A stretch of 64,000 nucleotides of DNA from Candidatus Shapirobacteria bacterium (GTDB lineage Bacteria; Patescibacteriota; Microgenomatia; UBA12405). The stretch lies in contig JBAZZE010000003.1 of assembly GCA_041658955.1 (NCBI GenBank), forward strand, positions 3,842-67,841, in the 5' to 3' direction. Below the pieces are notes generated by a model that ran no database searches, was not told the origin of the DNA, and saw only the letters and a program-made list of their open reading frames with translations. The translations under genes were made by a program, and so were the position numbers. Shown one piece after another: positions 9,301 to 51,202 of this stretch (position 1 is the stretch's first letter; each line of letters opens with the position of its first letter).

Positions 9301-11627
9301 TAAAAAGTGGCTTTGTTTGTGGCTGAGTTATCAAAAACTACTGCAACGTGATACCAAGTATTGGCAAAGACACTGTTACTTGAAGAACAAACAGAGGCGG
9401 CTTGATTATTTGTTTCGTAACATACTCGACCACCGGCTTGAAGGTAAAAATTGTAAGCGTTGGTTGTGTCACCTGAACCATCTTTGCTTATGATATATTC
9501 CTCACCTGCAGATAGATCATTACTATTGACCCAGGCACTGATAGTGAAATTTGTAGTTACATCAAGGCTATTTGAGTCTACAGCAGTAGCGTAATCCGTT
9601 GTCCCATTGAGTGAAAGTCCAACTCCAAATTTGGAAAGAGTTGACCATTCTGGAGCAGATGAACCGGCGGCAAAGGTAACTGTGTTGGTACCACCCGATG
9701 AGTCGATGACGGTTGTCCCGGTATTTTCATCCATTTTCCACCAACCAACGAGACCATTGGAAAGGGTGTCATTGAGGTCACGACCGACTTTGACACCACT
9801 ATCGGCGTTATAACTGTTTTTTATTTGGGAGTCTGTTCGAGCATAATCGTAAAGTTTAACCTCGTCAATAACTCCCTTAAATGCGGCAGTATTTCCGTCT
9901 GAACCTATTTGGAGATCTGAATTACTAGCGTATAAAGTATCACCACCTGTAGGTAAATTTGAACCACCTGTTAGATTTGAACCATTGACATAAATCTTAA
10001 GACTGGCCCCGTTCCTAACACCAACAACGTGATACCAGGTGTTTTTGGCCATAGTAAAAGTTGTGGGTCGAGTGAAAGCGTTGTAACCGGACCCTGAAGC
10101 GTTCACCCAGGCAAATGTAAACCTATTTTCGCTGGAGGTATAATCAGCTTGGAGTTCATACGATTCCCAAGGACTACCACCGTGTTTTTTCATAATAATA
10201 ACTTCGCGGCCACCGGGGACTTCAGACGGCAAAGCGTGAAGATAGACCCAAGCCTCGACTGACATGTTGGCCGAGGGCCGGAGAATACTATTGTCACCAG
10301 ATTTAGTAAAACGATTTCCAAGACCATCAAATTGAAGAGCATTGTCATATTTCCCTATAGTCCAAGATGGCAAGGTGGTGGAAGTACCGCCGGTTTCAAT
10401 AACGCCATCAAATCGATTAGGGCTAGAGTCATAGGCAGAAGTACCAATATTTTCATTGAATTTCCAATAAGCGACTGGCTCAGTATTATTGTTTTCAGTG
10501 GGTATAGTGGCACTAAAAAATGTAGATGGTGAATTTTGGTTGTTGTGTTCGGTACTGACCCAAGTGGTTGACCGGACGGATTTTGAAACACGAACTTCAT
10601 CGATAAGACCATTGGCGTCTGTTGGCCAAGAAGTAGTGCCACCAAGCATAAAACTGGCTGACGATGAACCGGGATCGACGGTTCGACTAACTTCGGTGCC
10701 ACCAACTGCACCATTGATATACATATAGTCAGTGTCAGATGTAGAGTTGTGAACACCGGTGATGTTGTACCAGGTTCCAGTAGTGACAGAGCCAGCACCA
10801 CCGAAGGTGCCGTATTCACTACCGTTAATATAGCTGATGCCCATACTGGTAGTGTTGTCATAAAAATACCAACCGGTACCATTTTCTTTACCTAACCAAT
10901 CATGCCAGCCTAAGGAGGTAGCTTTGACCCAAAAACTGGCACTAAGATCAGTAACGGTTTGACCGTTTTTGCTGGGAAAGTTGCTACTTAAATTAGTATC
11001 AGTGCGAAAAAGATCTCCTGCTTGAGTAAAACTGGCAGCTGTACCAATTTTACCGGTAGCATTGCTCACTGTTCCGGAAATTGCCAAATGGTTGTTATTG
11101 CTAGTGGAATCATAGCGGGTAGTGCCAACCTCATTTAGATGCCAAACACCAACATAATTGCTGTCCCAAACATTATTTTTACCGAATTCGAAAGCAGCGT
11201 CATAGTCAGTGGCACCGGAATTTCCATAATAAATATAAATAGAGGTGTCGACGGTCGAGGAGAGGGTCCCAGAGTATTTGAAATATAATTCACCAGCATC
11301 AGTGGCAGAATCATAATAAACTACTTCACGAGGTAGCTCGGTAGTGCCATCACTTTTAGTGACTCGAATATCACGAGCATCAGTTTGATTGACATGGGCA
11401 TGAAAATCTGCCGGAAGACTGGCGAGACTTACTAGGATAGGAAAATCAGTTTGGTCGGCAGAAACCTTGGTGTGGTCTATGGTTAGCATTAACCGATTGG
11501 TCCAACCAGTGTGATACCAAGCGGCTTCAACTGTGGTTGGTTTAGTTTGGATGCGAATTAAAACGACAATTCCAATCAGCAAAATTACGACAATGGTAAA
11601 CAGGGTTTTATACGAGAACTTTTCCAC
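6372..11627 (-). CDS. Giant LamG-repeat surface protein, paralog 3 (GTG start); N-terminal TM anchor
   Basis: 1751-aa ORF starting at GTG (plus-strand CAC at 11625-11627). N-terminus MEKFSYKTLFTIVVILLIGIVVLIRIQTKPTT. Repeated WKFNE/WWKMDE/HWKMEE ... DEV[KR][LV]YNYA[RL]T...I LamG-like units. The C-terminal ...LTETQIKSIINNGSATFR is shared with paralog 2. Confidence 0.7.
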   Translation of the reverse strand: MEKFSYKTLFTIVVILLIGIVVLIRIQTKPTTVEAAWYHTGWTNRLMLTIDHTKVSADQTDFPILVSLASLPADFHAHVNQTDARDIRVTKSDGTTELPREVVYYDSATDAGELYFKYSGTLSSTVDTSIYIYYGNSGATDYDAAFEFGKNNVWDSNYVGVWHLNEVGTTRYDSTSNNNHLAISGTVSNATGKIGTAASFTQAGDLFRTDTNLSSNFPSKNGQTVTDLSASFWVKATSLGWHDWLGKENGTGWYFYDNTTSMGISYINGSEYGTFGGAGSVTTGTWYNITGVHNSTSDTDYMYINGAVGGTEVSRTVDPGSSSASFMLGGTTSWPTDANGLIDEVRVSKSVRSTTWVSTEHNNQNSPSTFFSATIPTENNNTEPVAYWKFNENIGTSAYDSSPNRFDGVIETGGTSTTLPSWTIGKYDNALQFDGLGNRFTKSGDNSILRPSANMSVEAWVYLHALPSEVPGGREVIIMKKHGGSPWESYELQADYTSSENRFTFAWVNASGSGYNAFTRPTTFTMAKNTWYHVVGVRNGASLKIYVNGSNLTGGSNLPTGGDTLYASNSDLQIGSDGNTAAFKGVIDEVKLYDYARTDSQIKNSYNADSGVKVGRDLNDTLSNGLVGWWKMDENTGTTVIDSSGGTNTVTFAAGSSAPEWSTLSKFGVGLSLNGTTDYATAVDSNSLDVTTNFTISAWVNSNDLSAGEEYIISKDGSGDTTNAYNFYLQAGGRVCYETNNQAASVCSSSNSVFANTWYHVAVVFDNSATNKATFYVNGVKTGYFNSNVTQAPTALTTSLLIGRRGNSGSEFSGLLDDIRLYNRSLSPSEMQILYNYAPGPIGHWKMEEASWNNNCSTNTAMDSSGYDHHLRSCPASTGPTGGSVGKIGKGGTFDGSNDYLESTSTDFNLTGNVTLSAWVRPLDTPPGDVYVIDRTNNNAGYSLGWQSSRTPRLRIGNGSTYLQLTSPNTLSLDTWSFLSATITSDGAASLYVNGHLDTGATGMVIITSSGQNLRIGSRAAVNTVNAQLDDVKIYNYVRTKSQIREDMGNGKPLTPIINLKFEENSGTLANDSSGNNFTGTFGAGTASPAWTVGRSDQALSFDGGDYVQISDNNYLDFTDDFTLSAWVSRSGGTNEYIISKTDASSDGGYALLIGNAGEVYCRTANTTGFNDTYTATGYVLADSTWHHLVAAKTGTSCRVYVDGVDRTNTIATHTTMTANAKNLRIGTQPAGGNYTIGKIDEVNVYNYALNSDEIKQLYNRNSVIQSGQTVQTIGATTTSLKYCIPGDTALCNAPIGEWNFDTNVGTPSTLPDTSGNGNNGVANGSMTSDDWVPGKNGSALNFDGSNDYINIYSANLASLFSGNQGTVTAWFRVGDGVWGDGVQHQVLTIGADVNNMITIRKASDGSLNTLYTAAATNETSLDCALTDTGYIFIAMSWDQTAGKVVHYCNGLLTDTDTALGAYTGALSSTRATIGAHTTGVTYPWKGDIDDLRIYNYVRTPAQVGLDYNQGGPLVWYKFDECQGSIIHNSMGTGYTGVISIGAAGTQTSLGTCNSGTAAAWTNGASGKINGSLNFDGNDDLAAVTESESKGSLDIGSSDSFSIAYWFNPTSLPGAGTYDTYAGKNIGGNGWYTQIYSDGSLEFCVVNTSVHCYSGNQNVVNVGTWNHYAVAYTSGDDSSIRLYHNGKLLTGSWGGTANLTVPNTNNNLAFGSNGDGTEEATGKIDDFRYYGYLLTETQIKSIINNGSATFR

Positions 11628-21211: not shown

Positions 21212-21854
21212 CTTCGGAACTAATTTCGGTAGTTAATTTCTGGGACGAGTTGAGAAGAGAGTGAGCGCTATCTTTGATTTTTTTAATTTGAGTTTTTTGG
21301 GTATAGGTTAGGGGTGAACTTTGAAGCTGGGAAGCAAGGTCAATTATAGTAGTAATACCAGTTTTGAATTTTAGATTAATCCAGAGCAGGAAGTCGGTTT
21401 CATCACGGGCAATAGTATTTATAGACTTGGTAGCAGAGGCGGATTCCCGACTGACCAACCAAACTAGGGGAGTAATAAAAAGGAGAGAAGTGAGGGAAAG
21501 TAGAGAAGAAGGATTACTCAAGGTTTGACCAAGGAGTAGGACTAGGACTAATGAAAAAAGAAGCGAAAAAATAGGGGAAATAGTGAAGGAAGCTGAAAAA
21601 AGTAAAAAATAGATTAAAAAGTAAAATGGTGAGGTAAGCCCACCGGTAGTAAAGACAATAAGAGAAGCAACCAGAGAAATTAGAGGGACAGTAGAAAGAT
21701 TAAGGCGGTTAAATAGGATAAAAAGTATGACTGATAAGGCTATTAATTGGGGTGCGTAATGAGATAAGGAAGTTAGAGAAATAACAAAGGCAACTACCGG
21801 AGAGAGAAAGAGGAGAAATAAGGTAGGATTTCTTTGCATATACCAGTTTAGCAT
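21198..21854 (-). CDS. Polytopic membrane protein (5-6 TM) of unknown function, first gene of WxL-like trio
   Basis: 218 aa with multiple hydrophobic helices and a C-terminal soluble, acidic tail. It overlaps the downstream WxL-like gene by 14 nt. Confidence 0.45.
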   Translation of the reverse strand: MLNWYMQRNPTLFLLFLSPVVAFVISLTSLSHYAPQLIALSVILFILFNRLNLSTVPLISLVASLIVFTTGGLTSPFYFLIYFLLFSASFTISPIFSLLFSLVLVLLLGQTLSNPSSLLSLTSLLFITPLVWLVSRESASATKSINTIARDETDFLLWINLKFKTGITTIIDLASQLQSSPLTYTQKTQIKKIKDSAHSLLNSSQKLTTEISSEDEEN

Positions 21855-21873
21855 TTTAGAGTATATTGGTAAT

Positions 21874-22518
21874 GTGTACGAAAACTCACAAAAGTTTGGA
21901 GTTATGGACGGAATGTTGGCAGTTGGTTTGGCGTTGATTACAGTTGGTGTAGGACTGGGAATTAAGTCAAAAGTTGATAAAACTAAGGTGGAATTAATTA
22001 AGGGTAAAGAGGCAGAAACTGTTACACAAGGTTATAATAAAGTAACCTTTGATATATCAGGTGAGGTGCTAAAACCAGGGGTTTATCGGTTAAGTGGAGA
22101 TTCTAGGATTAGCGATGCGATGGTGGTTGCGGGAGGATTGTCAGCAAATGCGGATAGAGATTGGGTGGAGAAAAATATCAATCGAGCCAAAAGAATAAAT
22201 GATGGGGAGAAAATTTATATTCCTAAAAAATCTGCAAACTTTGATCTTCAAACTTCAAACCAAATATCAAACAACAAAACAAAAGAAATTATTAAAACAG
22301 AACAGGTATTGGGAAGCATGAGCGGTGGGGTGATAAATATAAATATTGCAGGTGTCGAGGAACTTGATAAATTAGAAGGAGTAGGGCCGTCAATCGCTGC
22401 TAAAATAATTGAATATCGCGTAAAAAATGGGGGTTTTCGAAATATTAATGAATTGAAATTAGTTTCAGGAATTGGGGATAAAATGTTCGAAAAATTTAAA
22501 GATAAAGTGGGAATATGA
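21874..22518 (+). CDS. comEA: Competence protein ComEA (TM + SLBB + helix-hairpin-helix DNA-binding)
   Basis: N-terminal TM. SLBB-like VTFDISGEVLKPGVYRLSGDSRISDAMVVAGGL...GEKIYIP. C-terminal HhH pair INIAGVEELDKLEGVGPSIAAKIIEYRVKNGGFRNINELKLVSGIGDKMFEKF. Confidence 0.8.
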   Translation: MYENSQKFGVMDGMLAVGLALITVGVGLGIKSKVDKTKVELIKGKEAETVTQGYNKVTFDISGEVLKPGVYRLSGDSRISDAMVVAGGLSANADRDWVEKNINRAKRINDGEKIYIPKKSANFDLQTSNQISNNKTKEIIKTEQVLGSMSGGVININIAGVEELDKLEGVGPSIAAKIIEYRVKNGGFRNINELKLVSGIGDKMFEKFKDKVGI

Positions 22519-23510
22519 AATGGAGGCGAGTGGTTTTCGTAATGTTTTTTACTTGGTTTTTGATATTTGGCAGTAAATCAAAAATGTTGGGGGTAATAAA
22601 TGATTGCCTTCCATATAAAGAAGCGGGACTATTATCTGGAATAATCTTGGGAGATAAGACAGATTTTCCAAAAGATTTTGAAACTCAATTAATTAATAGC
22701 GGACTAATTCATCTAGTGGTGGTGTCGGGTAGTAATGTGATGTTGTTGATAGGAGGTGTGATAGAGAATTTGGCGTCATGGGTGGGGCGGAAGTGGGCCA
22801 TAATTTTTGGATTGGTGTTGGGGTGGAAGTATGCAATAATGGTCGGTTGGGAGGTGCCGATAGTGCGGGCGACGTTACTGCTGTCGATCATGTATTTTGC
22901 GCAACTTGTGGGGAGAAAATATAATTTGGTTAGGGGACTTCTGCTGTCAGTTTTAATAATGATAGTTGGTGAACCAAGGGTAATAGCCAGTGTCAGTTTT
23001 TGGCTATCGATAATGGCGTTTTTGGGAGTAATTACTGCCAAAAAATTTATGCTAACAAATCCAATTATTTTTCCGGTGGCGAGGTCTGCTTTGGTGACTT
23101 GTGCCAGAGGTGGATTTCGCTTCACTTTAGATAAAGTTATTAGAGAAATTCTTCAATCATTTAGGGAAACTGTTTGGATAATGATTTGGATTACACCGAT
23201 CTTAGCGCAAATATTTGGAAAAATAAGCTTAATATCGCCACTAACCAATGTCTTGGTTTTGGGATTGGTAGGGGTAGTGAGCGTGGTGGGAGCGATGGGG
23301 ATTATATTGGGGATGTGGTGGTTAACTTTGGGAAAAATGGTATTGTGGCTAACAATTCCGACTTTAAGTTATTTACGAAAGGTGGCAGAGTGGGGTGGGG
23401 GAAGTAGTGGATTAGAGATTGAATTTAATTGGTGGATTTTAGCGGGATATTATTTGATTTTAGGTTATTGGTTAATTAAAAAAAAGAAACATAATATCGA
23501 TTTCTTGTAA
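22515..23510 (+). CDS. comEC: ComEC/Rec2 competence (DNA channel) domain - N-terminal half of a split ComEC
   Basis: Signature GLIHLVVVSGSNVMLL (compare GLSHLLAISGLHV of the ComEC Competence domain). Multiple TM helices. A 4-nt overlap with comEA. The ORF ends immediately before intergenic repeat elements. Confidence 0.7.
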   Translation: MKWRRVVFVMFFTWFLIFGSKSKMLGVINDCLPYKEAGLLSGIILGDKTDFPKDFETQLINSGLIHLVVVSGSNVMLLIGGVIENLASWVGRKWAIIFGLVLGWKYAIMVGWEVPIVRATLLLSIMYFAQLVGRKYNLVRGLLLSVLIMIVGEPRVIASVSFWLSIMAFLGVITAKKFMLTNPIIFPVARSALVTCARGGFRFTLDKVIREILQSFRETVWIMIWITPILAQIFGKISLISPLTNVLVLGLVGVVSVVGAMGIILGMWWLTLGKMVLWLTIPTLSYLRKVAEWGGGSSGLEIEFNWWILAGYYLILGYWLIKKKKHNIDFL

Positions 23511-23580
23511 CCATTTTTTATTGTCGAGAATGAATGTGCGACGCACGTTCAAACAGACAATAAAAAAGATTACTGCGAAC
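23502..23580. repeat. REP-like hairpin element, copy A
   Basis: TTCTTGTAACCATTTTTTATTGTCGAGAATGAATGTGCGACGCACGTTCAAACAGACAATAAAAAAGATTACTGCGAAC. Nested inverted repeats TTATTGTC/GACAATAA, TGAA/TTCA and GTGCG/CGCAC. Both ends are A/T runs. Confidence 0.7.
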
Positions 23581-23603
23581 TCGCTATTTGTAACAAATAT
23601 TTT

Positions 23604-23786
23604 CAAACTCAAACACATTTCCTCCGTGGACCGATAATCGGGCTAGCAAGGTTAACTGAAACCACCACATCATTTTTAAGTCGAACCGATAGTCTGCCGA
23701 CTTGAATGATCCCATGCGCACGTCCGGCAGCTATCTGCATTCTCGTCGGCTACCAACCGAAAACAAGCCGACTGCGAAAACTTCTT
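23604..23786 (+). ncRNA. Conserved structured intergenic element B, copy 1 (candidate ncRNA or cis-regulatory RNA)
   Basis: Shares two blocks with 47205..47336: AAACTCAAA(C/G)ACATTTCCTCCGTGGACCGATAATCGG, and CATCTGCATTCTC-[hairpin]-TGCGAAAAC(T/C)TC. The hairpin is GTCGGCT...AGCCGAC here and GAAGACC...GGTCTTC in copy 2, which are compensatory substitutions. Confidence 0.45.
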
Positions 23787-23820
23787 TTAAAAACGATATG
23801 GTGTTTTCAAATAAATACAA

Positions 23821-24606
23821 ATGAAATATAAGTGGTGGCTGATAACTAGCTTAGTAGTTTTATTGTTAATGGTGTGGCAATTCAACCGTGATACTGGGGT
23901 GAAGGTGGTGTTTTGTGATGTAGGACAAGGCGATGGGGCGTTGATAATAAGCGGTAGTTTTCAGATGTTGATTGATGTTGGTGGTGGTAATCAGAAAATG
24001 CTCCAGTGTTTATCGAGGCACTTGCCGTTTTGGGATAAAACTATAGAAACAGTGGTAATTAGCCACTGGGATGCGGATCATAGTGGCGGACTACCAGGTA
24101 TTTATCGTTATTATAAGATTGAAAAACTATATAGTAATCAACTGTCGTCGGGGGACGGTGAACAAAAATTTTACCCAACTAAAGTATCAGAAAATGATGT
24201 CATTAGATTTGATGGGATAGATTTTGAAATACTTAATAAAGTAGTTGAAGGTGGCGACCCAAATGAAAATTCACTAATCGGAGTACTTAGTTATAAGGAT
24301 AAAAAAATATTAATGATGGGAGACGCTACTAGCGAAGCTGAACAAAGATTGGTGTGGCAAGGAATCCTTCGACAAGCTCAGGATGGAAAAGGAATAGATA
24401 TTTTAAAAATAAGTCATCACGGATCGGATAGGGCGACTTCGCCAGAATTACTTGATGAGGTCAACCCAGAAATGGCGATAATTTCAGTGGGTAAAGATAA
24501 TAAATTTGGTCACCCAGCAAAAACGGTAATAAAAAGACTGGAAGAGAGGGGTATAAAAATCAATAGAACCGATAATATGGGAGATGTAACGGTTACATAT
24601 GAATGA
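23821..24606 (+). CDS. ComEC C-terminal metallo-beta-lactamase-fold domain encoded as separate ORF
   Basis: N-terminal TM. Motifs VVFCDVGQGDGALII, ISHWDADHSGG (HxHxDH-type), LMMGDATSEAEQ, ISHHGSDRATS and NKFGHPAKTVIKRL, typical of the ComEC Lactamase_B domain. Confidence 0.65.
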   Translation: MKYKWWLITSLVVLLLMVWQFNRDTGVKVVFCDVGQGDGALIISGSFQMLIDVGGGNQKMLQCLSRHLPFWDKTIETVVISHWDADHSGGLPGIYRYYKIEKLYSNQLSSGDGEQKFYPTKVSENDVIRFDGIDFEILNKVVEGGDPNENSLIGVLSYKDKKILMMGDATSEAEQRLVWQGILRQAQDGKGIDILKISHHGSDRATSPELLDEVNPEMAIISVGKDNKFGHPAKTVIKRLEERGIKINRTDNMGDVTVTYE

Positions 24607-24674
24607 AATTGGTTGTATATATAGAGAAAAAAGTGTAAATTTAATATAGAAAAGTTGTAATTAATAAATCAAAA

Positions 24675-27600
24675 GTGCTGCTTCTTAAAAGACCAGTTTT
24701 AATGGGGGTTGTATTAGGGGTCTTTTTAGGGAGCCTTGTAGGTTGGGGGTGGTGGAGAGTATCGACTAAGGTTGAAGCAACAGATCGGACAATCACCAGT
24801 CGAGCTGATTTTGATCAAGGTTTGTTTGATAATACTGAAAGTAAAAGTAAGGAAGGAGAACTGAGACTAAAAGCCGGTGGTACTTGGGGAGCAAGGGTAT
24901 GGCAGATGCCAAAGGTAGGGATGACCAACCAAACAGGAATTGTCTCCGATGGAACCCACTTGTATATGTTGGCTGGTCAGGATAGGTATTTTGCTAAATA
25001 CATTCCAAATGAAGATCGATGGCAACAATTGGCCAATGCGCCACATGCTGCCTCGGTGGGGACTGATTTGGTGGTTGAGGGTGATTATATTTATGCAATT
25101 TTTGGGTCTTACACTAAGAACTTCAGTCGATACACGATCTCGACTGATACTTGGGTGAATATGGATGATGCCCCAGATTTGCTATACGATGGAGCTAGTT
25201 TGGGAACGGATGGAACCTATATTTATCTACTACGAGGGTCGTATACATCAGATTATTGGCGGTATAATCCATCAAATAATACATGGCTTAGTCTAGCGGC
25301 TCCACCAGCGACGATTGGAAGGGGGGCTAGCCTTTCATATAAGAATGGTTATTTTTATACGCCTAGAGGTGATTCAAACTTATTTTACAAATATGAAGTT
25401 GCCACAAATTTGTGGACTACTTTGCCAAATATACCGGCACCAAGTATCTCATATGCAGCTCACAACTCGGATATATTTGGAAATGCTTTGTATTACAACT
25501 TGGACTATGGGACGACAGCTTTTTACAAATTTGATTTGGGAACTACGTCTTGGTCAACACTACCGGGCTTGCCATGGCCATCTTATTACGTGGGTTTGGT
25601 GGGGGTGGGTGACACGGCTACTGGTCATGTATATGTTTTTCGAGGAAATGGTTCAGTCGATTTTTGGAAATATAATCCACGGACAAATAGTTTTGAGGGT
25701 TCGGTGGACACACCGAATGCTCCTAGTACAGGAGCAGACTTGCTTTATGATGGAAATTATCTGTATTTAAACCGAGGGGCAAATTCGACGAATATGTATC
25801 GGTACCAAATTGGAGGAACCTGGAAAACAATGGCAGATGCGCCGGCTGCTATGGGTGATGACACTAAAGGAATACAGGCTGGAGGATCGTTTTATTATAT
25901 TCGAGGGTCGGGGACGACTGCATTTTTTAAATTTGATCCGGCGATTGGGGCTAACGGGACTTGGACATCGATGTTGGGTACACCGGCCACAGCCAACTAC
26001 GGGGCGTCAGTAGTTTATCCAGGTAGTGGTAATTATATGTACGCAACCAGAGGTGCTTTGACACGAACTTTTTGGAGATACACAATTGGGGCAGGGGAAA
26101 CGTGGAGTGACGCGGCGGCGGCTGACTTACCAGATAATGCTGAAGCTGGGTATGGAGCTAGACTGGCGAGTGATGGAACAGATATCTATTACATGCCAGG
26201 AAGTGGAATGAGCAAACTTTATAAATACACTATCGGAACAACAACTTGGTCAGAAATTTCTGACATTCCCTTTTCGCCTTACTATGGGTCAGATATAAGC
26301 TACTATAACGGCAAATTGTACTTTTTGGCGGGTTACTATAAACCAGACTTTTGGGAATATACCATCGCCACCTCATCATGGAGAAGATTGGCGCCAACTC
26401 AAGATTATGGAGCCACAGAGATTGGTCCTTGGGCTGGTGCATCAATTGAATCATTGGGTAATGGTACTTTTTATGTAATTTTAGGAAATGGGGTGACAAG
26501 ACTTTTGACCTATACCGTAGATGCAAACAATTACCCAGTAAGTGGTGGGTGGACTAGTAAAGCCTTAGATTTATCATATGTAGCTTCGTGGAGTGGTCTG
26601 TCAATACAATCTTCACTGCCAGGAGACTCGTCAATTAGCTGGACAAGTCGAAGTAGTAGCGATCAAATAACTTGGAGTGACTGGATTGCTGGAGTGGGGA
26701 GTAGCATTGGGAGTCCGGTGGGAAGGTATCTTCAAGTTGGAGTAACCTTGGTATCGACGAGTGATCGGACAAATACGCCAAAGTTACTAGATATTCAAGT
26801 AAGTTATATTGGTGATACTGGAGTACCGACTAATCCATCAACGGTGGTGGGGGTGTCACAACAAGTATCGGGAGTGGGTCTGACATCGGCAGAAAGTTAT
26901 GGTTACCAAGCACCATATTTTAGTTGGAGCGGTGCGACTGACACTCAGACTTCAATTGCCGGATACTATGTTTATTTTGGAACTGGATCAAGTGCTTCAC
27001 CGGTGACCGAGGGAAATTATCAAACTGCGAGCAACTATCTAGTGACTACACCAATGGATCAGACGACTTACTATTTGAGATTGGTGACAGTTGATTCTGC
27101 TGGTAATAATTCAGCGGCAACTACAGCTTTTGTTTACACCTACAATGGAATTGCACCACCGATTACGATAACAAAGACAACTACAGCAGACTTTGGAGTG
27201 GGAACTACCAGCGCCGTGGATGTAAGTGGTGACAAGATAAAACTACAAGGTAAAGCAGGTTTTTGGGAGCAAGAGAGAATAAGCAGCCTGCCTGCAGGGA
27301 TATATTTAGGTGGTGACATGGCTTACAAAAGTAGCACTAATAAAATCTATTTATTTAGAGGCTACAATTCGAATACTTTTTATATTTATGACTTGACTAC
27401 CAATACAGTATCGGTGGGTCCGACAGCGCCAGGGGCAGTGTATTATGGTGGAGGTATGGTGGAAGGACCGGGTAATTACTTATATGCTATGAAAGGCTTA
27501 GTAACCAATTCTTTCTGGAGATTTGATGTGGGGACAACTACCTGGTCAGATGTAGCAGCGGCTGATTTACCACAGACTATATCGTATGGAGGATCGCTGG

Positions 27601-30600
27601 AATATGATGGCAGCCGATTTATTTATGCCACGCGAGGGTCGGGTGATGATGCCTTAATGAGATATGACACAATTGGTGACATCTGGGAAATGATGGCCAA
27701 TGCTGATTTTAATGCTCCAATAAATCAACCCAATAACACCATAAACGATGGTTCAGATATGGCTTATGATGGAAACGATACGTTGTATGTAATGCAGGGT
27801 GGTGGAAGAGATGGTTTTGCTGGATATAGTATTTCCACCAATACCTGGTTAACTCTTACTGATTTACCGATGTTTTCCGGGGCAGGTTCACAAATTGAAT
27901 ATGATAGTACTACCAATGCTATTTATTATGTTGCTGGTAGTGGTCGAAATTTTGTCTACAAATACGACATTGCGTCTCAATTGTGGAGTGATCTAGCAGA
28001 GACTCCAATGGCTGTAGGTGGAGGAGCTTCACTTAAAAAAATTGGAGGAAACTTATATTTGACAGTAGGTAACGGTTCGTTAGCGGTTTATAAGTACAAC
28101 ATCAATAAAAATATGTGGCTAATTCCGACCGTTGGTTTATTCGGTGGCTGGTTTAGAGGTAGTGATAGTCGCACTTTTGGATATGGGGCGGACATTGTAA
28201 AAGGGGATGGAAATAATATGTATTTAGTTAGAGGAAACTTTGACAATCTATTTGTCCGTTACAATTCAGTGACAGGAGTAGCGACTAGAATGGCCGATGT
28301 TCCTGCAGGCATGACTTCAGGTACGAAATTGGTTTATGATAGTGTTCATAACCGGATTTATGCAACCGTGGGGTCATATTATCGAAAGTTTTTTGTCTAT
28401 GATGTGGCCAGTGATACTTGGTCGGAAGAAGTAAATGATCCGCCGCCACTTGATAGTGCTGAGGGAAGTTCGATGGTGTTCAATGCTACAGATAGATATA
28501 TTTATTGGCTTCGAGGTGCTGGAACCCAGAGTTTCTATCGGTTCAACACTGAAGGCGTGGGGACTAGTAAATGGAGCATTTTGCCAAATACGGGATTGTC
28601 GATGAGCTATGGAGCTGATATGGTTTTGAAAAATGATTATATTTATACATTACGCGGTTCAAACACCACTGGATTTTTGAGATACGGTCCGTTGTCGGTA
28701 GGGGCGACTTGGTCAAATACGGCAGTGGCTGATTTACCAACCGGAGCCAATATATATAATGATGGATTCTTAGTTGATCTGGGTGGCGACTACTTAATGG
28801 CTTGTCGAGGTGGTAATCAAAACACCTGTTACCGTTACTCAATTACTGGAGATAGCTGGTCAGTAGTGACTAGCGCCACATCGCCATATATTTACACTGG
28901 AGGAGCAGGGGCAGTTAACTCGAGTGGCGAAAAAATGTTGGTGATAGCTGGAAATGGACAATTAAATACTATGTCTAATGGGTTGTATAGCTATGTAATT
29001 GAAAGTGAAAATTCGTCTTATGAAGAAAGTGGTGAATATATATCACCAGTCCATGACTTAACAGCAGTTTACAAATTTGCAAACTTAAGCATAGATGTTA
29101 CTTTGCCTGATAATACAGGACTTTCTGTATATACAAAATCATCGGCAGATAACTCGACTTGGGGAGACTGGACGGTAGCTTCTGAACAAAAAATTGTGGG
29201 TACCAATAGGAGTTTTAAGATAAACTCAACAACAGCGAGGTATTTACAGATTAAGTTGGCAATGACTTCGAGTGATGGAGTTAGGTCGGGAACAATAAAT
29301 AGCTACACAGTAAATTATTATCAAGATACAACAGAGCCAACAAACCCGACACTATTATCTGGGTATACCAATAGTGGGATGGGGACAACTTTAGTAAGTG
29401 GTGTCTGGAATAATTCGACTGCGCCATATTTCGGATGGAGTGGGGCGAGCGATGGAGCAAATGGTTCGGGGGTAGAGGGATATTATGTTTATTTTGGAAC
29501 CGGAGAAACGGCAAACCCGGTAACTTTAGGGACTTACACCACAGGAACATCTTTTATAGGAACAACCATGGTTTCAGGAGAAACTTATTATTTCAGACTT
29601 AAAACAAAAGATAGTGCTGATAATGTCAGCACGGATGTAGGAACAACTTTGGTTTATAAACTTGATAACACCGCCCCAGAAAACCCGACGGCTGTTTTGG
29701 CTAATCCACCAGGGTATACGACAATCGATAACTTTACTTTCACATGGGGAGCGGGCACAGATAGCTCTTCAGGGATTGCGGCATATTGTTATAAAACCGG
29801 TGCTAGTAGTGGTCCTCTAGCGACAGAACAATGCATTACTGATGTAGGAGTAACTGGGATAACTGGGATCACCAAATATCAAACTGATGAAAATATTTTT
29901 TACTTAAGAGTTAAAGATACGGCTGGCAACTTCGCCAGTAGTTCATTGACAGCAATTTATAAGTTTTCAGGAACTGCTCCAAGCCGACCAATGAACTTAA
30001 GAATGACTTACCCGGATGTGGGGACTAGCAACACGGTTAATGATTTTGCTTTTGCTTGGGATCAACCAGAAAGTTTCTTGGGAGCGGCTGCCAACCTAGT
30101 TTATAAATACTCAATAAACGAAGAACCAACGCCAAGTAATGTGAGTACAGTGGGGACGAATGTCCGATACTTAAGTCGAAGCCAATATGCCTCGCGTAGC
30201 GGAGTAAATACTATTTATGTGGTGGTATCAGACGAAGCTGGAAATATGGCAGTCACCGATGGAAAGTACACCAACTATGCCAGTTTGGATTTTGAAGCAT
30301 CAACTTCAGCTCCAGGAATTGGTAGAAACTTAGATATCTCTGATGTGTCAATTAAAGAAACTAGTAGTTGGAGATTAGCATTGACTTGGGATGCGCCTGA
30401 GGCATCTGGATCAGGTATCGCTAATTACCGGGTATACAGAAGCACTACTGCTGGAGCCTCTTGTACTTCAAGTATGGACAATTTTGGTGGAACAAACGGC
30501 TTTATATCGACAACGACTACCACATCGTATATTGACACAGAACTATTGCAGTCAAAATATTATTATTGTGTCAAAGCTTGTAATTCAACAGACCAGTGTG

Positions 30601-31880
30601 GGGCGCCAAGCTCAACTGTAGCCTTGCTACCAGATGGTAAGTGGCGAGTACCACCAACATTAACTGCAGAACCGGCGGCAAGTGTAAAAACAAAGACGGC
30701 GACAATTACCTGGTCGACAAATCGTAAGGGTAATTCATTTGTAAAGTATGGTAAAAGTGCTGGAGATTATGGTGAAGAAGTTGGATCATCAGATCTTTTG
30801 AGTGCCCATGAAATTGCTCTTACTGGCTTGGACCCGGGAACTACTTATTATTACAAAGCGACATGGACAGATGAGGATGGAAATACTGGCGAATCAACGG
30901 AGTATAGTTTTAAAACTAACCCGGCACCAATTGTGTCAACCGTTAAGATTGTTGACGTTGGATTGTATTCTGTTTATGTAAAATTTGGATTGAACCATGC
31001 ATCAAAAGCAACTATTCAATACGGTAAAACTACAGCGTATGGTTCGGTGGCTGAGTTAACCACATCAACTGCAGAATCGACTTATTCTGAAAAACTAGAT
31101 AGTTTGGAAGAGGGTACAAAATATCACTTAAAAATCGTGGCAGAGGATGAAGAGGGTAACAAATTTACATCGGATGATTATGAATTTGCGACTCTGCCAA
31201 TGCCTAAGATTGAGGGAGTAAAAATCCAGCAAGTAAAAGGAATGGCGAGTGCCACGATTATGGCGTCCTGGAAAACAAATACTGGAGTATCGTCGATTGT
31301 GAGTTATTACCCAGAGGGGAGACCAGAAATGACCAGAGATCAGGTTACTTTGACGCTAGGGTTGAATCACCAGATGCTAATTAAGGACCTGTTGGATGCG
31401 ACTGATTATGTAATATTGGTACGAGGTAAAGATCAAGTTGGAAATGAAGCTAAAATGAGTACCAACAAATTTAAAACTTCAACTGATCTTCGACCACCCT
31501 TAATTACTGATATGCGGGTAGAAGGGGCAGTGAGTGGAGTTGGTGAAGCGACCAAAGCCCAGATAATTGTTTATTGGAATACTGATGAGCCATCGACTGG
31601 CCAAGTTGAGTTTGGTGAAGGAACTGGTTCTGATTATCCCAATAGAACTCAAGAAGATGGAAACTTCACCCTGAATCACGTAGTAACTATTACTGACTTG
31701 AAACCTTCTCAGGTATATCATTTAAGAATAGTATCTAAAGACAGAATTGGTAACCAAGTGGAGTCATTTGATAATGTGACGGTAACACCAAAGGCAACCA
31801 AATCAGCACTCGACCTGGTGGTTAACAGTTTGTCTAAGAGTTTCGGATTCTTTGGAAGTTTAGGAAAAATAGCCCAATGA
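24675..31880 (+). CDS. Giant (2401 aa) membrane-anchored surface protein: about 40 Kelch-like beta-propeller repeats followed by FN3-like domains
   Basis: N-terminal TM. Long array of ~48-aa repeats of the form Y.Y...G.....F..Y.......W..L...P (e.g. IYLLRGSYTSDYWRYNPSNNTWLSLAAPPA). At least four C-terminal FN3/PAP-N-like units (ATITWSTNRKGNSFVKYGKSAGDYGEE...TGLDPGTTYYYKA). The stop overlaps the ABC ATPase start (ATGA). Confidence 0.7.
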   Translation: MLLLKRPVLMGVVLGVFLGSLVGWGWWRVSTKVEATDRTITSRADFDQGLFDNTESKSKEGELRLKAGGTWGARVWQMPKVGMTNQTGIVSDGTHLYMLAGQDRYFAKYIPNEDRWQQLANAPHAASVGTDLVVEGDYIYAIFGSYTKNFSRYTISTDTWVNMDDAPDLLYDGASLGTDGTYIYLLRGSYTSDYWRYNPSNNTWLSLAAPPATIGRGASLSYKNGYFYTPRGDSNLFYKYEVATNLWTTLPNIPAPSISYAAHNSDIFGNALYYNLDYGTTAFYKFDLGTTSWSTLPGLPWPSYYVGLVGVGDTATGHVYVFRGNGSVDFWKYNPRTNSFEGSVDTPNAPSTGADLLYDGNYLYLNRGANSTNMYRYQIGGTWKTMADAPAAMGDDTKGIQAGGSFYYIRGSGTTAFFKFDPAIGANGTWTSMLGTPATANYGASVVYPGSGNYMYATRGALTRTFWRYTIGAGETWSDAAAADLPDNAEAGYGARLASDGTDIYYMPGSGMSKLYKYTIGTTTWSEISDIPFSPYYGSDISYYNGKLYFLAGYYKPDFWEYTIATSSWRRLAPTQDYGATEIGPWAGASIESLGNGTFYVILGNGVTRLLTYTVDANNYPVSGGWTSKALDLSYVASWSGLSIQSSLPGDSSISWTSRSSSDQITWSDWIAGVGSSIGSPVGRYLQVGVTLVSTSDRTNTPKLLDIQVSYIGDTGVPTNPSTVVGVSQQVSGVGLTSAESYGYQAPYFSWSGATDTQTSIAGYYVYFGTGSSASPVTEGNYQTASNYLVTTPMDQTTYYLRLVTVDSAGNNSAATTAFVYTYNGIAPPITITKTTTADFGVGTTSAVDVSGDKIKLQGKAGFWEQERISSLPAGIYLGGDMAYKSSTNKIYLFRGYNSNTFYIYDLTTNTVSVGPTAPGAVYYGGGMVEGPGNYLYAMKGLVTNSFWRFDVGTTTWSDVAAADLPQTISYGGSLEYDGSRFIYATRGSGDDALMRYDTIGDIWEMMANADFNAPINQPNNTINDGSDMAYDGNDTLYVMQGGGRDGFAGYSISTNTWLTLTDLPMFSGAGSQIEYDSTTNAIYYVAGSGRNFVYKYDIASQLWSDLAETPMAVGGGASLKKIGGNLYLTVGNGSLAVYKYNINKNMWLIPTVGLFGGWFRGSDSRTFGYGADIVKGDGNNMYLVRGNFDNLFVRYNSVTGVATRMADVPAGMTSGTKLVYDSVHNRIYATVGSYYRKFFVYDVASDTWSEEVNDPPPLDSAEGSSMVFNATDRYIYWLRGAGTQSFYRFNTEGVGTSKWSILPNTGLSMSYGADMVLKNDYIYTLRGSNTTGFLRYGPLSVGATWSNTAVADLPTGANIYNDGFLVDLGGDYLMACRGGNQNTCYRYSITGDSWSVVTSATSPYIYTGGAGAVNSSGEKMLVIAGNGQLNTMSNGLYSYVIESENSSYEESGEYISPVHDLTAVYKFANLSIDVTLPDNTGLSVYTKSSADNSTWGDWTVASEQKIVGTNRSFKINSTTARYLQIKLAMTSSDGVRSGTINSYTVNYYQDTTEPTNPTLLSGYTNSGMGTTLVSGVWNNSTAPYFGWSGASDGANGSGVEGYYVYFGTGETANPVTLGTYTTGTSFIGTTMVSGETYYFRLKTKDSADNVSTDVGTTLVYKLDNTAPENPTAVLANPPGYTTIDNFTFTWGAGTDSSSGIAAYCYKTGASSGPLATEQCITDVGVTGITGITKYQTDENIFYLRVKDTAGNFASSSLTAIYKFSGTAPSRPMNLRMTYPDVGTSNTVNDFAFAWDQPESFLGAAANLVYKYSINEEPTPSNVSTVGTNVRYLSRSQYASRSGVNTIYVVVSDEAGNMAVTDGKYTNYASLDFEASTSAPGIGRNLDISDVSIKETSSWRLALTWDAPEASGSGIANYRVYRSTTAGASCTSSMDNFGGTNGFISTTTTTSYIDTELLQSKYYYCVKACNSTDQCGAPSSTVALLPDGKWRVPPTLTAEPAASVKTKTATITWSTNRKGNSFVKYGKSAGDYGEEVGSSDLLSAHEIALTGLDPGTTYYYKATWTDEDGNTGESTEYSFKTNPAPIVSTVKIVDVGLYSVYVKFGLNHASKATIQYGKTTAYGSVAELTTSTAESTYSEKLDSLEEGTKYHLKIVAEDEEGNKFTSDDYEFATLPMPKIEGVKIQQVKGMASATIMASWKTNTGVSSIVSYYPEGRPEMTRDQVTLTLGLNHQMLIKDLLDATDYVILVRGKDQVGNEAKMSTNKFKTSTDLRPPLITDMRVEGAVSGVGEATKAQIIVYWNTDEPSTGQVEFGEGTGSDYPNRTQEDGNFTLNHVVTITDLKPSQVYHLRIVSKDRIGNQVESFDNVTVTPKATKSALDLVVNSLSKSFGFFGSLGKIAQ

Positions 31881-35042: not shown

Positions 35043-36014
35043 TTATTTTACAGAGTTGTAGATTTGGCGGGATATATCGCTGATAGTCTTGGTTAGTACA
35101 TTGAAATTGTTACCTCGGGTCATGATACAGACTAAGTATGGTTTTGCGGGAAGATAAACTATGCCACAATCATGAAGTTGCTTAACACCAGTTTCATTGT
35201 AACTACGTTCGCCATATTTGTGAGCAATACTGACTGATGGATCAACACCAGCAGCGAGAGCGTCTTTATATTGACTTTGACTAAGAATATTGAGGGCTAT
35301 TTCAGAATACTTGGGATTAAGATATGAAGCATTGTAGAGAATCCGGAAAAATGATGCATATGATTTGACGGAAAGAATATCACCGTTGGGGTTGGTAAAT
35401 CCAAGACTGATGTCGACCCCTAGGTCAGCGAAGACTTTGACCAAAAATTGGTTATCAATATTGGCAAGTAACAAATCGTAAGCCTGGTTATCAGATTGAA
35501 CTATTAAATTGTTAATCATCTGACTAACAGTATATTTTTGATTTGGGACCATTGTAGTTTTTGGAGCGATATTTTGGGCATATTCTGATGCTGAAGGTGT
35601 AGCAATAAGTTCTTTTTCGAGAATTGAAGGGTCAGTTTCAGCCATTTTAAAATAGGCGATCATTAGGGGAACTTTTATCAAACTTGCTGGGGAAAAAAGC
35701 TCATTTTGGTTGATACCAAACCAAGGTCCATTGTTCATATCCCGGTAATAGACAGAGACGTGAGAAAGTTCTTTGGATTTTACTTTTTGATCGATATATT
35801 GGTTAAGTTTGTTGCGGAGCTGATCAAGGTTGGTATCAGTACTAACAGCATCGGTATCACATTCGAGTAAAGGGTTGATATATTTGTAACCAGCTGGGAG
35901 TCGGGATTCGGTGAATAGATTTAATTTATTAGGTGTTTTGGAGATTGATGCAGATAGAAAACCGGCAACGTAAATGACAATTCCTAAAAATAAGAATAAG
36001 GCCACTTTCTTCAT
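35043..36014 (-). CDS. Class A beta-lactamase-like serine hydrolase (secreted/anchored)
   Basis: Signal/TM. SxxK at FSPASLIKV. SDN at VQSDNQAYDLL. K[TS]G-like HKYGE region. Overall length is ~300 aa as in Beta-lactamase2. Confidence 0.55.
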   Translation of the reverse strand: MKKVALFLFLGIVIYVAGFLSASISKTPNKLNLFTESRLPAGYKYINPLLECDTDAVSTDTNLDQLRNKLNQYIDQKVKSKELSHVSVYYRDMNNGPWFGINQNELFSPASLIKVPLMIAYFKMAETDPSILEKELIATPSASEYAQNIAPKTTMVPNQKYTVSQMINNLIVQSDNQAYDLLLANIDNQFLVKVFADLGVDISLGFTNPNGDILSVKSYASFFRILYNASYLNPKYSEIALNILSQSQYKDALAAGVDPSVSIAHKYGERSYNETGVKQLHDCGIVYLPAKPYLVCIMTRGNNFNVLTKTISDISRQIYNSVK

Positions 36015-45005: not shown

Positions 45006-46097
45006 ATGACGTACAAGGACTATTATGAGATTTTAGGTGTTGGTAGAAAAGCATCGGATGATGATATTAAGGCTGCATATAGAAAATTAGTCAAAATAAC
45101 ACATACTGATATTTACCCTGAAAAAGAAGAGGAATTTAAAGAACTCAATGAAGCATATGGGGTATTGAGTGATGTTGATAAACGAGCAAGATACGATCGA
45201 TTTGGAAAAGAAGGCTTGAAGCAGGGTTTTGTACCTCCGGCTGATGGTTTTGGTGATTTTTGGAGTGAGTTTGGGGTTGGTGGTGGTATGTTTGGCGATA
45301 TTTTGCGGAGTATGTTTAGCGGTGATAAGGCTGAGCAAGCAAGAGCTAGACAGAGGGCAGAAGAAATGTTGAAGGATTTACAGGCTCAACAGGAGCGGAC
45401 AAGAACCGAGGGTGCGACTCGAACTACGGTAAATCGTCCATCAAATGACCATCCAAAATCAACAAGGTCAGCTCAACCAAATATAAAATTTGGGTTAGGA
45501 GACATTAAAATTCCTGAAGAAGAGTTTAGTCTTATGGCTGGACTAACTAAGATCGAAGGTATGAGAGGGCCGGTAACCTTAGAACATGATGAATATCGAA
45601 TTTTGAAGGACAAGATGGGCAATACTCGGGTTGAGGTAAAGATGTCTCGGTTTATAAAAGATGGTAGAACTGAAGTTCGGGTGGGTAAACCAGGTACCTT
45701 TGAGACTTTTAATAAAACACGGAAAGATTGGGTTGATGCTAGTTGGATAGATCAGGGAAATGTGATGGGAGCCGATATGCCCAAAAATTATCGAAGTTTA
45801 ATTGGATTAGTTAATCAAGTGGCTTTAACAATTTCCCATCAGGATGAACTGACCGATGTAACGATAACTAGCTTAAACATTGCTGCCCGGGTGAGTTTCC
45901 CGGATGATCGGAAGAGAGAGGTGGAGGGTGATCGTCTTCGCCAGGAATTGGTGATTGAATCGGGAAAATGGTTGTTTACTGGGGTTGATGATGAAGTTAA
46001 GCCGAAAAATATGCCAGTAGAGGGTGGTATGGCTTCCAAGCCTAAGTCGGCACCAATAAATCTAAATGAAGGTTTGAAGATGCGTAGGAAAACTTAG
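45006..46097 (+). CDS. J-domain protein with degenerate HPD motif (HTD), non-DnaJ C-terminal region
   Basis: N-terminal [63 protein letters not shown] is a J-domain with HPD replaced by HTD. There is no CxxCxGxG zinc finger. Confidence 0.6.
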
Positions 46098-47204: not shown

Positions 47205-47336
47205 TTCAAACTCAAAGACATTTCCTCCGTGGACCGATAATCGGCTATCCTCCTTAATCCCAAGCGCGTGTACCGCCGTCATCTGCATTCTCGAAGACCT
47301 CCATACAAAAGAAACAGGTCTTCTGCGAAACCTCCA
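47205..47336 (+). ncRNA. Conserved structured intergenic element B, copy 2
   Basis: See copy 1. This copy lacks the ~80-nt insert present in copy 1. It contains the palindrome CCGATAATCGG. Confidence 0.45.
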
Positions 47337-47775
47337 CTTTGGAAACGTCTTTGAGTTTTATTTGATCAAAATTAACTTTTAATGAATTTTAATAAACACC
47401 TTAAATTACGATATTAATATATATTAAATCTTGGAGTAAAATAATATAGGTAAAGATGTGGATAGGTGTGGATAAGTATATACAGCCTGTAATATTAATA
47501 GGATAATGTTCGATAGCGAAGGGGAGGAACTGTTTCGTCAGTTGGGGGTATATAGTGTGGAGTTTCAGGACAGTTTATTTTGCAGCGATTACATTCACTT
47601 CGAGTGACGATGACAGCGTCTTCGAATTCGGTGAGGTGATGAATCTTAAGTAAATCTCGTTCAATTTTAGCGCTAGAGCAGAAGACTATTTGTTCAGATA
47701 TAATTTTGACCCTTGTCAGAATATCAAAACGGGAAATTCATGCAACTGGCAAAAATTCTAGAAAACTTGTAACCG

Positions 47776-47846
47776 TTTTTCTCACTCGAAGTCAAGTGTG
47801 CGACGCACGTTGAACCTCGCTCGAAAAAAGTTACTGCGTTTTCTTT
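47776..47846. repeat. REP-like element, divergent/partial copy B'
   Basis: CTCACTCGAAGTCAAGTGTGCGACGCACGTTGAACCTCGCTCGAAAAAAGTTACTGCG keeps the inner TCAA-GTGCGACGCAC-TTGA core and the AAAAAAG(A)TTAC tail. The outer arm is degenerate. Confidence 0.5.
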
Positions 47847-47900
47847 TAGAATTTTTGACAAATTTCAGCTTCAATCCTATCTACTTGATAAAATAGTTAA

Positions 47901-49240: not shown

Positions 49241-49317
49241 TGTAATTTATATTACATTATTTCTAAACAAACTCTCATATTATTTTAAGTTGAAGTAAAA
49301 GCTACTTAATACTTGAA

Positions 49318-49397
49318 TTCTCGTAACCATTTTTTATTGCCGAGAATCAATCTGGTTGTCCAGGTTGAAACAGTCAATAAAAAAGATTACTTCGAAT
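49318..49397. repeat. REP-like hairpin element, copy C (between ruvC and ruvA)
   Basis: TTCTCGTAACCATTTTTTATTGCCGAGAATCAATCTGGTTGTCCAGGTTGAAACAGTCAATAAAAAAGATTACTTCGAA. The architecture is the same as copy A, with the inner palindrome replaced by CTGG/CCAG. Confidence 0.7.
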
Positions 49398-49503
49398 TCA
49401 GTATTAATCCACCAAACGAATTAACTAACTGTTAAACAGTTCTTTCAAAATAAGATATATGTTTCGTCTTTCCTTCGGGGGTGGGTAAATGTTATGATGA
49501 GCT

Positions 49504-51026: not shown

Positions 51027-51045
51027 CTTATTACAATAAAACCTA

Positions 51046-51127
51046 TCAAGTTCTCGTAACCATTTTTTATTGCCAAGAATCAAGTGTGCGACGCACGTTG
51101 AAACAGGCAAAAAAAAAGATTACTTCG
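51046..51127. repeat. REP-like hairpin element, copy D (after ruvB)
   Basis: TTCTCGTAACCATTTTTTATTGCCAAGAATCAAGTGTGCGACGCACGTTGAAACAGGCAATAAAAAAAAGATTACTTCGAA. Arms TTATTGCC/GGCAATAA, TCAA/TTGA and GTGCG/CGCAC. Confidence 0.7.
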
Positions 51128-51202
51128 AACTTGAAGCTTTATATAAATTGCGAAAACTACCCTCCGGAAATGTATTTGACATTGAATTTGTTATTTTCGG
51201 AA

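Follow-up and report, generated by a model that had tools for sequence, protein, structure and literature searches.

In the 64,000-nucleotide stretch of a Candidatus Shapirobacteria genome analysed here (contig JBAZZE010000003.1; the whole stretch is hereafter called the window), ComEC, whose putative role in DNA uptake is assigned from homology and from the neighbouring comEA gene, is encoded by two separate open reading frames (ORFs). One of them specifies the Competence-domain channel (ORF1, or comEC-N) and the other a metallo-beta-lactamase (MBL) nuclease (ORF2), and the 310-nt spacer between them (23511-23820) is made up almost wholly of repeat elements. Comparison with related loci indicates that, very probably, ComEC was ancestrally a two-gene system in this lineage and that the gene junction was later colonised by mobile palindromic repeats. 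The channel gene is accompanied by a nuclease gene whose product carries its own transmembrane (TM) helix as an anchor, corresponding to the last TM helix of canonical ComEC. This fission and the missing N-terminal OB fold of the channel protein are common to the class that includes Shapirobacteria, Woesebacteria and other Microgenomates, with a 4-nt gene overlap as the typical arrangement. In the scheme proposed here, the two products would come together in the membrane and act as single-chain ComEC does, importing single-stranded DNA (ssDNA) and degrading the other strand. In Shapirobacteria the gene junction would have loosened and become a landing site, and in the window an element termed A, a fragment of a B2-type element and an element termed M would have stretched the gap to its present length.

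An original prediction made from the sequence alone had recognised comEA, ORF1 and ORF2, and both its coordinates (Table 1) and its division of the domains were confirmed by the ORF map and by Pfam. The translational coupling that it proposed for comEA and comEC-N agrees with the 4-nt overlap (ATGA) of these genes. The Competence match of ORF1 spans positions 1-267 of the 270 positions of the PF03772 profile, and the protein aligns to residues 204-488 of an 801-residue full-length ComEC (PDB 30bt_A). ORF2 aligns to residues 516-784 of the same protein (E 3e-21). The aligned part takes in the TM helix in front of the nuclease domain, and this helix matches the last TM helix of full-length ComEC (residues 516-538). 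Together, the two alignments define a clean cut between the channel and the last TM helix. Pfam found no MBL domain in ORF1 and no match to the OB fold (DUF4131), the alignment beginning at ComEC residue 204 with the N-terminal 200 or so residues missing. The best solved-structure matches of ORF2 are all C-terminal domains of ComEC (E 3e-21 to 5e-9).

Both ORFs are under purifying selection and appear to be functional. The metal site of ORF2 (HxDxDH / D / HHGS / GHP) is intact, and its residues H82, D84, D86, H87, D168, H199, H200 and H231 are invariant in 20 stand-alone ORF2 homologues sharing 46-88% identity. The ratio of non-synonymous to synonymous substitution rates (dN/dS) was 0.29 for ORF1 and 0.15 for ORF2 against a relative with 92% identity, and 0.15-0.19 against more distant relatives, the ranges by gene being 0.18-0.29 for ORF1 and 0.15-0.19 for ORF2. 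These ratios and the invariant catalytic residues contradict the idea, entertained originally, of a possibly non-functional ComEC, while the companion idea of a two-subunit ComEC was retained as the likely reading. That the two proteins join to form a single machine is suggested by their homology, by the class-wide adjacency and coupling of their genes and by an outgroup in which they are fused.

The two-gene arrangement is shared by the relatives. Among the best 120 listed homologues of each ORF, those of ORF1 are all Competence-only (about 240-440 aa) and those of ORF2 all MBL-only (about 220-305 aa), their named sources being Candidatus Shapirobacteria, the Microgenomates group and Patescibacteria. 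An exhaustive search with ORF1 covered 1.84 billion cluster representatives (50%-identity clusters); 148 of the 150 best were 494 aa or shorter, too short to accommodate an MBL domain, and only the other two, at 759 and 802 aa, had the size of a full-length protein. From species-representative genomes 75 loci were taken (numbered L001 onwards), with both genes readable in about 60 Microgenomates-type loci. All readable loci from Shapirobacteria, Woesebacteria, Levyibacteriota and other Microgenomates carried two adjacent ORFs, and in each of them the MBL ORF began with a start codon of its own and a TM helix. The distance between the two ORFs ranged from -37 to +582 nt, with -4 (an ATGA-type overlap) as the commonest value, and many loci lacked a spacer altogether, their second ORF starting 1 to 37 nt before the end of the first. 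A fused ComEC was found only in six of the 75 loci, all from the Dehalococcoidia/Chloroflexia (Chloroflexota outgroup). The split also occurs without any repeat, as in L005 (gap -1), L007 (gap -11) and L083 (ORFs abutting).

Two side observations concern this set of loci. In L083 (about 5006-5045) the channel and MBL frames abut and the conserved MBL start has no ATG; a 7-nt tandem duplication (ACTAATT x2) parts the frames, and the removal of one copy yields a single continuous ComEC ORF. The arrangement reflects either an error of assembly or a secondary fusion into which a frameshift was introduced afterwards. In addition, many metagenome-assembled genomes of the third party annotation (TPA) type with Shapirobacteria-type comEA/comEC (L007, L008, L012-L018 and others) are titled "uncultured Gammaproteobacteria bacterium", and the record of L067 is titled "uncultured Thiobacillus sp."; these titles look like mislabelled taxonomy in public records.

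The spacer of the window contains stop codons in all three frames and separates ORFs that lie in different frames, the last five or so codons of ORF1 and its stop codon being located inside the 5' arm of element A. The original prediction had described it as one hairpin element plus one copy of an element B. Its repeat content was borne out; "B", by contrast, is not a single element and resolved into a B2-type fragment followed by a complete element M. That the spacer arose through misassembly or chimerism in a metagenome-assembled genome, a view in favour of which it can be said that repeats commonly cause such errors, has a negligible probability: contig L079 (Ga0172379_10200350, from a JGI metagenome), an independent assembly, carries the same spacer, flanks and MBL gene with no differences seen on reading by eye, and an identical MBL protein is found on two contigs in NCBI, JGI and ENA sources. 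As a separate observation, the GC skew is strongly positive on the + strand over 21.5-25.5 kb and negative only at the spacer (23500-23900), a flip that is consistent with inserted DNA of different composition.

Element A has four copies in the window, and its core motif occurs three times against 0.04 expected by chance. Its architecture can be written X7-CTY-Y5-NN-ATTTTTY-[apical hairpin]-RAAAAAT-NN-Y5'-TKCG-X7'. A covariance model (CM R2) built on six copies found further ones in Shapirobacteria with a ComEC only 42-46% identical. Over 13 copies, 96.6% of the cells were paired and 16 of the 24 pairs showed double changes; these values were reached by none of 500 shuffles and pairing dropped to 38-55% in slid controls, although the alignment used for the counts was fitted to the model, which somewhat inflates the pairing statistics. 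All 13 copies lie on the sense strand, and the apical helix contains a conserved U.G wobble that favours folding of the + strand. The stop codon of the upstream ORF falls within the 5' arm of a repeat element not only in the window but also in L006, L027 and L084 (whose junction holds M only), and the junction between comEA and comEC-N is likewise widened by element A copies in L012, L014, L018 and L024. Two loci (L014, 9803-9899; L015, 9783-9879) carry a copy of the family in frame inside leuS, adding 32 aa relative to the leucyl-tRNA synthetase of the window. Close to this copy, at about 9650-9715 of L014, leuS contains a second, different palindromic insert (ATTGCGAG...CTCGCAAT) that adds 18 aa. 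No direct target duplications were seen flanking the element A copies. An identity with integron attC sites was considered and rejected, because on inspection the R''/R' consensus (RYYYAAC / GTTRRRY) was unmatched and the equivalent stem varies between species.

Element M ends 10 nt before the MBL start codon. Its three stems are a long closing stem, one of GATAG/CTATC and a variable hairpin with the conserved motif CTGCGAAA after it. The M/B family has four known copies: besides the two of the window there is one each in L084 and L082, both of them in the same comEC junction. In the consensus fold obtained with RNAalifold from these four copies, 21 of 37 pairs showed compensatory double changes and none showed one-sided changes. 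A covariance model of the family (CM R1) found no copies beyond the four seeds in 734 kb of related loci, which confines M to near relatives of the window. Exact-pattern searching for the M core across metagenomes brought up only contig L079, which belongs to the same organism, and two viral-contig scans for the M and A cores gave zero matches. A target-site duplication around "B" suggested by a shared ACTGCGA was dismissed, since CTGCG is a conserved internal motif of both families. Two smaller traces were also recorded: a 29-nt piece at 49266-49294, preceding an element A copy, matches the 5' arm of the L084-type M (score 41 against a shuffle maximum of 25), and at 51166-51193, beside a whole element A copy, the sequence weakly resembles the B 5' arm in inverted orientation (78% over 32 nt, E 0.2).

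Table 1. Positions of the ComEC genes and of the repeat elements in the window (CM, covariance model score; MFE, minimum free energy).
Feature	Position	Strand	Description
comEA	21874..22518	+	SLBB and helix-hairpin-helix DNA-binding protein; Pfam HHH_3 9.5e-21, SLBB 2.3e-8
ComEC channel subunit, ORF1	22515..23510	+	331 aa; Competence PF03772, E 1.4e-42
Element A, junction copy	23496..23587	+	92-nt imperfect palindrome; CM R2 96.4 bits; MFE -28.2 kcal/mol
5' fragment of B2-type element	about 23602..23650	+	Closing-stem 5' arm and first hairpin; 98% identity over 40 nt to 47205-47244
Element M	23659..23810	+	Complete, 152 nt; CM R1 154.6 bits; MFE -43.5 kcal/mol
ComEC nuclease subunit, ORF2	23821..24606	+	261 aa; N-terminal TM helix and MBL PF00753, E 6e-12
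B2, second full B/M copy	47207..47362	+	Divergent region between murB (-) and metallophosphoesterase gene (+); CM R1 170.8 bits
Element A copy upstream of metallophosphoesterase gene	47758..47848	+	CM R2 92.4 bits
Element A copy between ruvC and ruvA	49312..49404	+	CM R2 86 bits; neighbours by Pfam RuvC/RuvA
Element A copy after ruvB	51045..51137	+	CM R2 96.2 bits

Several properties are common to both families. All window copies, four of element A and two of B/M in 64 kb, are intergenic, and element fragments adjoin whole elements both at the junction and at 49.27 kb. The spacer RNA has a much more stable fold than shuffled sequence does (z = -5.5). Rfam at the gathering threshold found only two tRNAs in the whole window, and at E <= 10 it returned nothing credible for 23450-23880, so that A and M match no family. 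Scans of 21700-24800 for sigma-70 promoters and intrinsic terminators gave no hit in the spacer. A Rho-independent terminator was discarded as an identity for the elements because 23400-23900 offers no site with a G+C-rich stem and a U tract, nor any terminator-like site; in element A, a T run stands before the hairpin and an A run after it. Classification as miniature inverted-repeat transposable elements was also rejected, the ends being complementary and differing in sequence between copies, with no direct duplications seen at the copies.

The content of the junction changes rapidly among close relatives. Relative to the window, the loci of the closest relative, with 92% amino acid identity in ORF1 (L001/L080/L081), have a gap of 129 nt holding element A only, and L084 (70%) has a gap of 157 nt with M only. 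A single B2-type copy is found in the 190-nt gap of L082 (68%), element A alone in the 133-nt gap of L003/L004 (66%), and no element in L083 (67%). The junction copy of element A in the window shares only 60% identity with the copy at the same site in the 92% relative, and 77-83% with its paralogues elsewhere in the window; in the flanking genes, 4-7% of non-synonymous and 14-34% of synonymous sites differ from those of this relative. The junction copy is thus nearer to its paralogues than to the orthologous site, a pattern compatible with replacement or conversion by an active repeat population and not with vertical inheritance of a fixed regulatory site. The repeats therefore appear to have arrived at the junction after the split and not to have caused it.

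Other kinds of selfish DNA have entered the same place. In L008 (6843-7436) an IS200-like Y1_Tnp ORF of the RAYT type, with an internal ARIADT x3 repeat, separates the channel gene from the MBL gene, overlapping each of them. In L085 (692-2008) a Competence::Y1_Tnp fusion ORF, in which a Y1_Tnp remnant is joined to the end of the channel ORF, is followed by the MBL gene with a 4-nt overlap. In L013, L016 and L025 the gap holds a DUF559 endonuclease ORF flanked by G+C-rich hairpins. The presence of A/M repeats, Y1_Tnp and DUF559 ORFs at one and the same junction makes it a hot spot, that is, a recurrent landing site for selfish DNA.

The organisation of the locus in the window could also be explained by the breakage of a continuous comEC in this lineage upon insertion of A and B, with a pseudogene or an accidental two-piece gene as the outcome. 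The original prediction had considered this disruption next to an ancestral split, and had regarded an identical split without repeats in related genomes as an argument against the former. Disruption would suit a spacer composed of nearly nothing but repeats, with the stop codon of ORF1 supplied by the 5' arm of element A; however, essentially all relatives have the same split, including those with overlapping genes and no repeats, the MBL start codon and TM helix are conserved in all of them, and both ORFs are under purifying selection. In addition, the ORFs lie in different frames and no excision joins them. Deletion of 23502-23800, which the original prediction had suggested might restore a frame, led to a stop after seven more codons, and excision of each mapped spacer element gave no continuous ORF1-ORF2 frame in any case. 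The repeat-free split loci L005, L007 and L083, together with those of Woesebacteria, refute the broken-gene explanation, which is left with scarcely any credibility, and the clade-wide arrangement across Shapirobacteria, Woesebacteria, Levyibacteriota and other Microgenomates speaks for an ancestral split. Still another view would take ORF2 as no part of ComEC at all but as an independent MBL hydrolase, such as an Apyc1-like anti-defence protein or a housekeeping enzyme, residing beside a Competence-only ComEC. Precomputed Pfam data do show weak PF23023 (Anti-Pycsar Apyc1) matches in the ORF2 family, NCBI names its relatives only "MBL fold metallo-hydrolase", and Competence-only ComEC proteins devoid of a nuclease partner are known, that of Helicobacter pylori lacking the domain (PMC12455585). 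Nevertheless, the top solved-structure matches are ComEC C-terminal domains without exception, with the preceding TM helix aligned too, the position directly 3' of the Competence gene is kept class-wide, often with a 4-nt overlap, and the outgroup has both parts as one protein, all of which renders an independent enzyme very improbable.

Regarding the elements themselves, A and M would best be seen as lineage-specific, sense-oriented, multi-copy palindromic mobile repeats of the REP or Rickettsia-palindromic-element type. They might instead be functional cis-acting RNA structures of the operon mRNA, kept by selection for processing, stability, insulation or the setting of the channel:nuclease ratio, a role that would be compatible with a mobile origin. 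The very strong compensatory base-pair changes, the sense orientation of all copies with respect to neighbouring genes, the U.G wobble favouring the + strand fold, the stability of the spacer RNA compared with shuffled sequence and the occurrence of an A/M family member at the junction in the window, L001, L003, L006, L014, L021, L024, L027, L082 and L084 would all accord with such a function. Against it, the element type at the junction differs among close relatives (A, M, B2-type or none), the sequence of the junction copy of element A shows no orthology to the copy in the 92% relative, and relatives with overlapping genes need no element. Moreover, one copy resides in frame inside leuS, the paired changes of the M family are all strict Watson-Crick doubles with no G.U intermediates, as expected of palindromes at the DNA level, and the spacer has no terminator or promoter consensus and no Rfam match. 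The regulatory role is weakened by the rapid turnover at the junction and by the in-frame leuS copy, and is considered rather unlikely. A bolder reading, to which a tentative, minority chance is given, is that A and M constitute an undescribed class of strand-specific, structure-defined mobile elements in the Candidate Phyla Radiation (CPR), and that in Microgenomates a natural, class-wide split ComEC shows the nuclease to operate as a separate membrane-anchored subunit in the absence of an OB fold. The stems of such elements would covary while short loop motifs (CTY/TKCG and CTGCGAAA) stay fixed; they would have the 3' ends of genes and operon junctions as their targets, provide stop codons and be able to reside in frame in essential genes, and they might be moved as ssDNA by a Y1/HUH enzyme or act as RNA.

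Some points weigh against an ancestral two-gene ComEC later colonised by mobile repeats, besides the inflation of the pairing statistics mentioned above. L083 looks like a disrupted secondary fusion, which means that the fusion state is not completely fixed in the clade, and it is from synteny and homology only that the two proteins are deduced to work as one machine. No transposase for A/M was found in the window, where tblastn over the 64 kb detected no Y1_Tnp, and the RAYT-like genes of L008, L020 and L085 have no flanking element A copies, so a link of A/M to IS200/IS605 or RAYT is a hypothesis only. Finally, the outer stems of both families vary between copies yet stay complementary, which a simple transposon model with conserved terminal inverted repeats does not explain and which leaves room for selection at the level of structure, that is, for a function.

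When compared with the canonical single-chain ComEC/Rec2 (Bacillus subtilis; structures PDB 30bt and 9vc6), the system of the window has in common the Competence channel, the C-terminal TM helix and MBL domain with its metal ligands, and the comEA neighbourhood. It differs in being made of two polypeptides, cut between the channel and the last TM helix, and in the absence of the N-terminal 200 or so residues with the OB fold. DUF4131 is missing from many other ComEC homologues as well, and Pimentel & Zhang (2018) reconstructed an ancestor with the Competence domain alone, from which DUF4131 and Lactamase_B were gained and lost repeatedly (PMC6299819). The ComEC of Helicobacter pylori has no nuclease (MBL) domain (PMC12455585). 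The same paper reports that, in vitro, the nuclease is more active with the OB fold on its own chain. The Competence-only variants described in these studies (PMC6299819, PMC12455585) resemble the present case in having a channel without fused DUF4131 and Lactamase_B, but here the nuclease is kept, class-wide, as an adjacent, membrane-anchored and co-oriented gene. ComEC-dependent natural transformation has been shown in Saccharibacteria, one CPR lineage, and not in this class (PMC10633639).

The repeats behave like REP/REPIN, Rickettsia palindromic elements or BOX-type modular repeats, but they do not match the sequence definition of any of these types. With the REP/REPIN-RAYT system they share short, palindromic, multi-copy and mostly intergenic hairpins with an orientation bias, and RAYT-like Y1_Tnp genes occur in relatives, twice at this very junction. 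In contrast to that system, element A has no conserved GTAG-type 5' tetranucleotide at the hairpin foot and carries conserved unpaired motifs, CTY on the 5' side and TKCG on the 3' side; its outer stems show compensated variation, the window yielded no RAYT, and the RAYT-like genes of relatives are not flanked by element A. Rickettsia palindromic elements, reportedly described by Ogata et al. in 2000, are said to be palindromic repeats of about 100-150 nt present both in frame in essential protein genes and between genes. The element A family recalls them by its in-frame copy in leuS (L014/L015) and by the several copies that extend over the 3' end of the gene before them, stop codon included. 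The two host phyla are unrelated, however, and the window copies are all intergenic; the likeness is behavioural only. The pneumococcal BOX and Neisseria Correia elements are modular intergenic repeats forming stable hairpins that are co-transcribed with their neighbours. As in these, modules appear whole, truncated or juxtaposed (A, B2 fragment and M at the junction; an M fragment beside A at 49.27 kb), whereas the sequences are different, the terminal sequences are not conserved, and the three-stem M with CTGCGAAA matches no described family (Rfam negative).

With respect to expression, a TATAAT-like hexamer was found to end 5-11 nt upstream of the start codon in 20 of 40 window genes, with a peak at 5-6 nt, and Shine-Dalgarno motifs are nearly absent at the 40 gene starts; the starts examined included those of 46094-47155 (-), 48767 (+), 51874-53181 (-) and 21874 (+). 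The closeness of -10-like hexamers to the starts, together with the near absence of Shine-Dalgarno motifs, suggests that leaderless mRNAs are widespread in this Shapirobacteria genome. comEA has such a hexamer, TATATT, whose end lies 6 nt upstream of the start codon, and no -10-like hexamer precedes comEC-N, the MBL gene, the following gene for a 2401-aa protein or the two ABC-transporter genes behind it. This distribution points to one transcription unit, of which comEA is probably the first gene, and the MBL gene is probably still co-transcribed from comEA through the repeats. The single transcript would read through the A and M hairpins, and the MBL subunit would be translated from its own AUG, placed in an A/U-rich stretch (UUUUCAAAUAAAUACAAAUG) just 3' of the M closing stem.

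Further features were noted elsewhere in the window. Directly after the MBL gene, 24675-31880 (+) encodes the 2401-aa protein, with faint Kelch/FN3-type repeat matches; the genes that follow it are of the MacB-type ABC transporter, and this synteny is kept in L084 and L003. On the opposite strand, 1883-11627 (-) holds two very large adjacent ORFs (1503 and 1751 aa) with many internal repeats spaced by about 650 nt, including a 300-nt pair at 81% identity, and the pair of ORFs is followed by a protein with Big_1 Ig-like domains. The gene at 35043-36014 (-) codes for a member of the class A beta-lactamase family (PF13354, E 3.5e-37).

In the searchable literature no explicit description was found of a class-wide, adjacent, membrane-anchored, stand-alone nuclease subunit of ComEC, nor, in the literature, of palindromic repeats in CPR genomes. 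The natural fission of ComEC across a class can be regarded as mildly novel, and so can the two repeat families, which are undescribed, covary strongly and favour operon junctions; neither point overturns current understanding. For those annotating CPR genomes, an "MBL fold metallo-hydrolase" beside a short ComEC would be the missing ComEC domain and not the remnant of a pseudogene. The repeats indicate that even highly streamlined, ultra-small genomes still bear palindromic repeats with fast turnover and a covarying structure, and that an operon junction devoid of translational coupling may become a landing pad for repeats and for transposase and endonuclease genes. Lastly, a class that keeps channel and nuclease as two selected genes, without the OB fold, would provide a natural experiment on the cooperation of ComEC domains.

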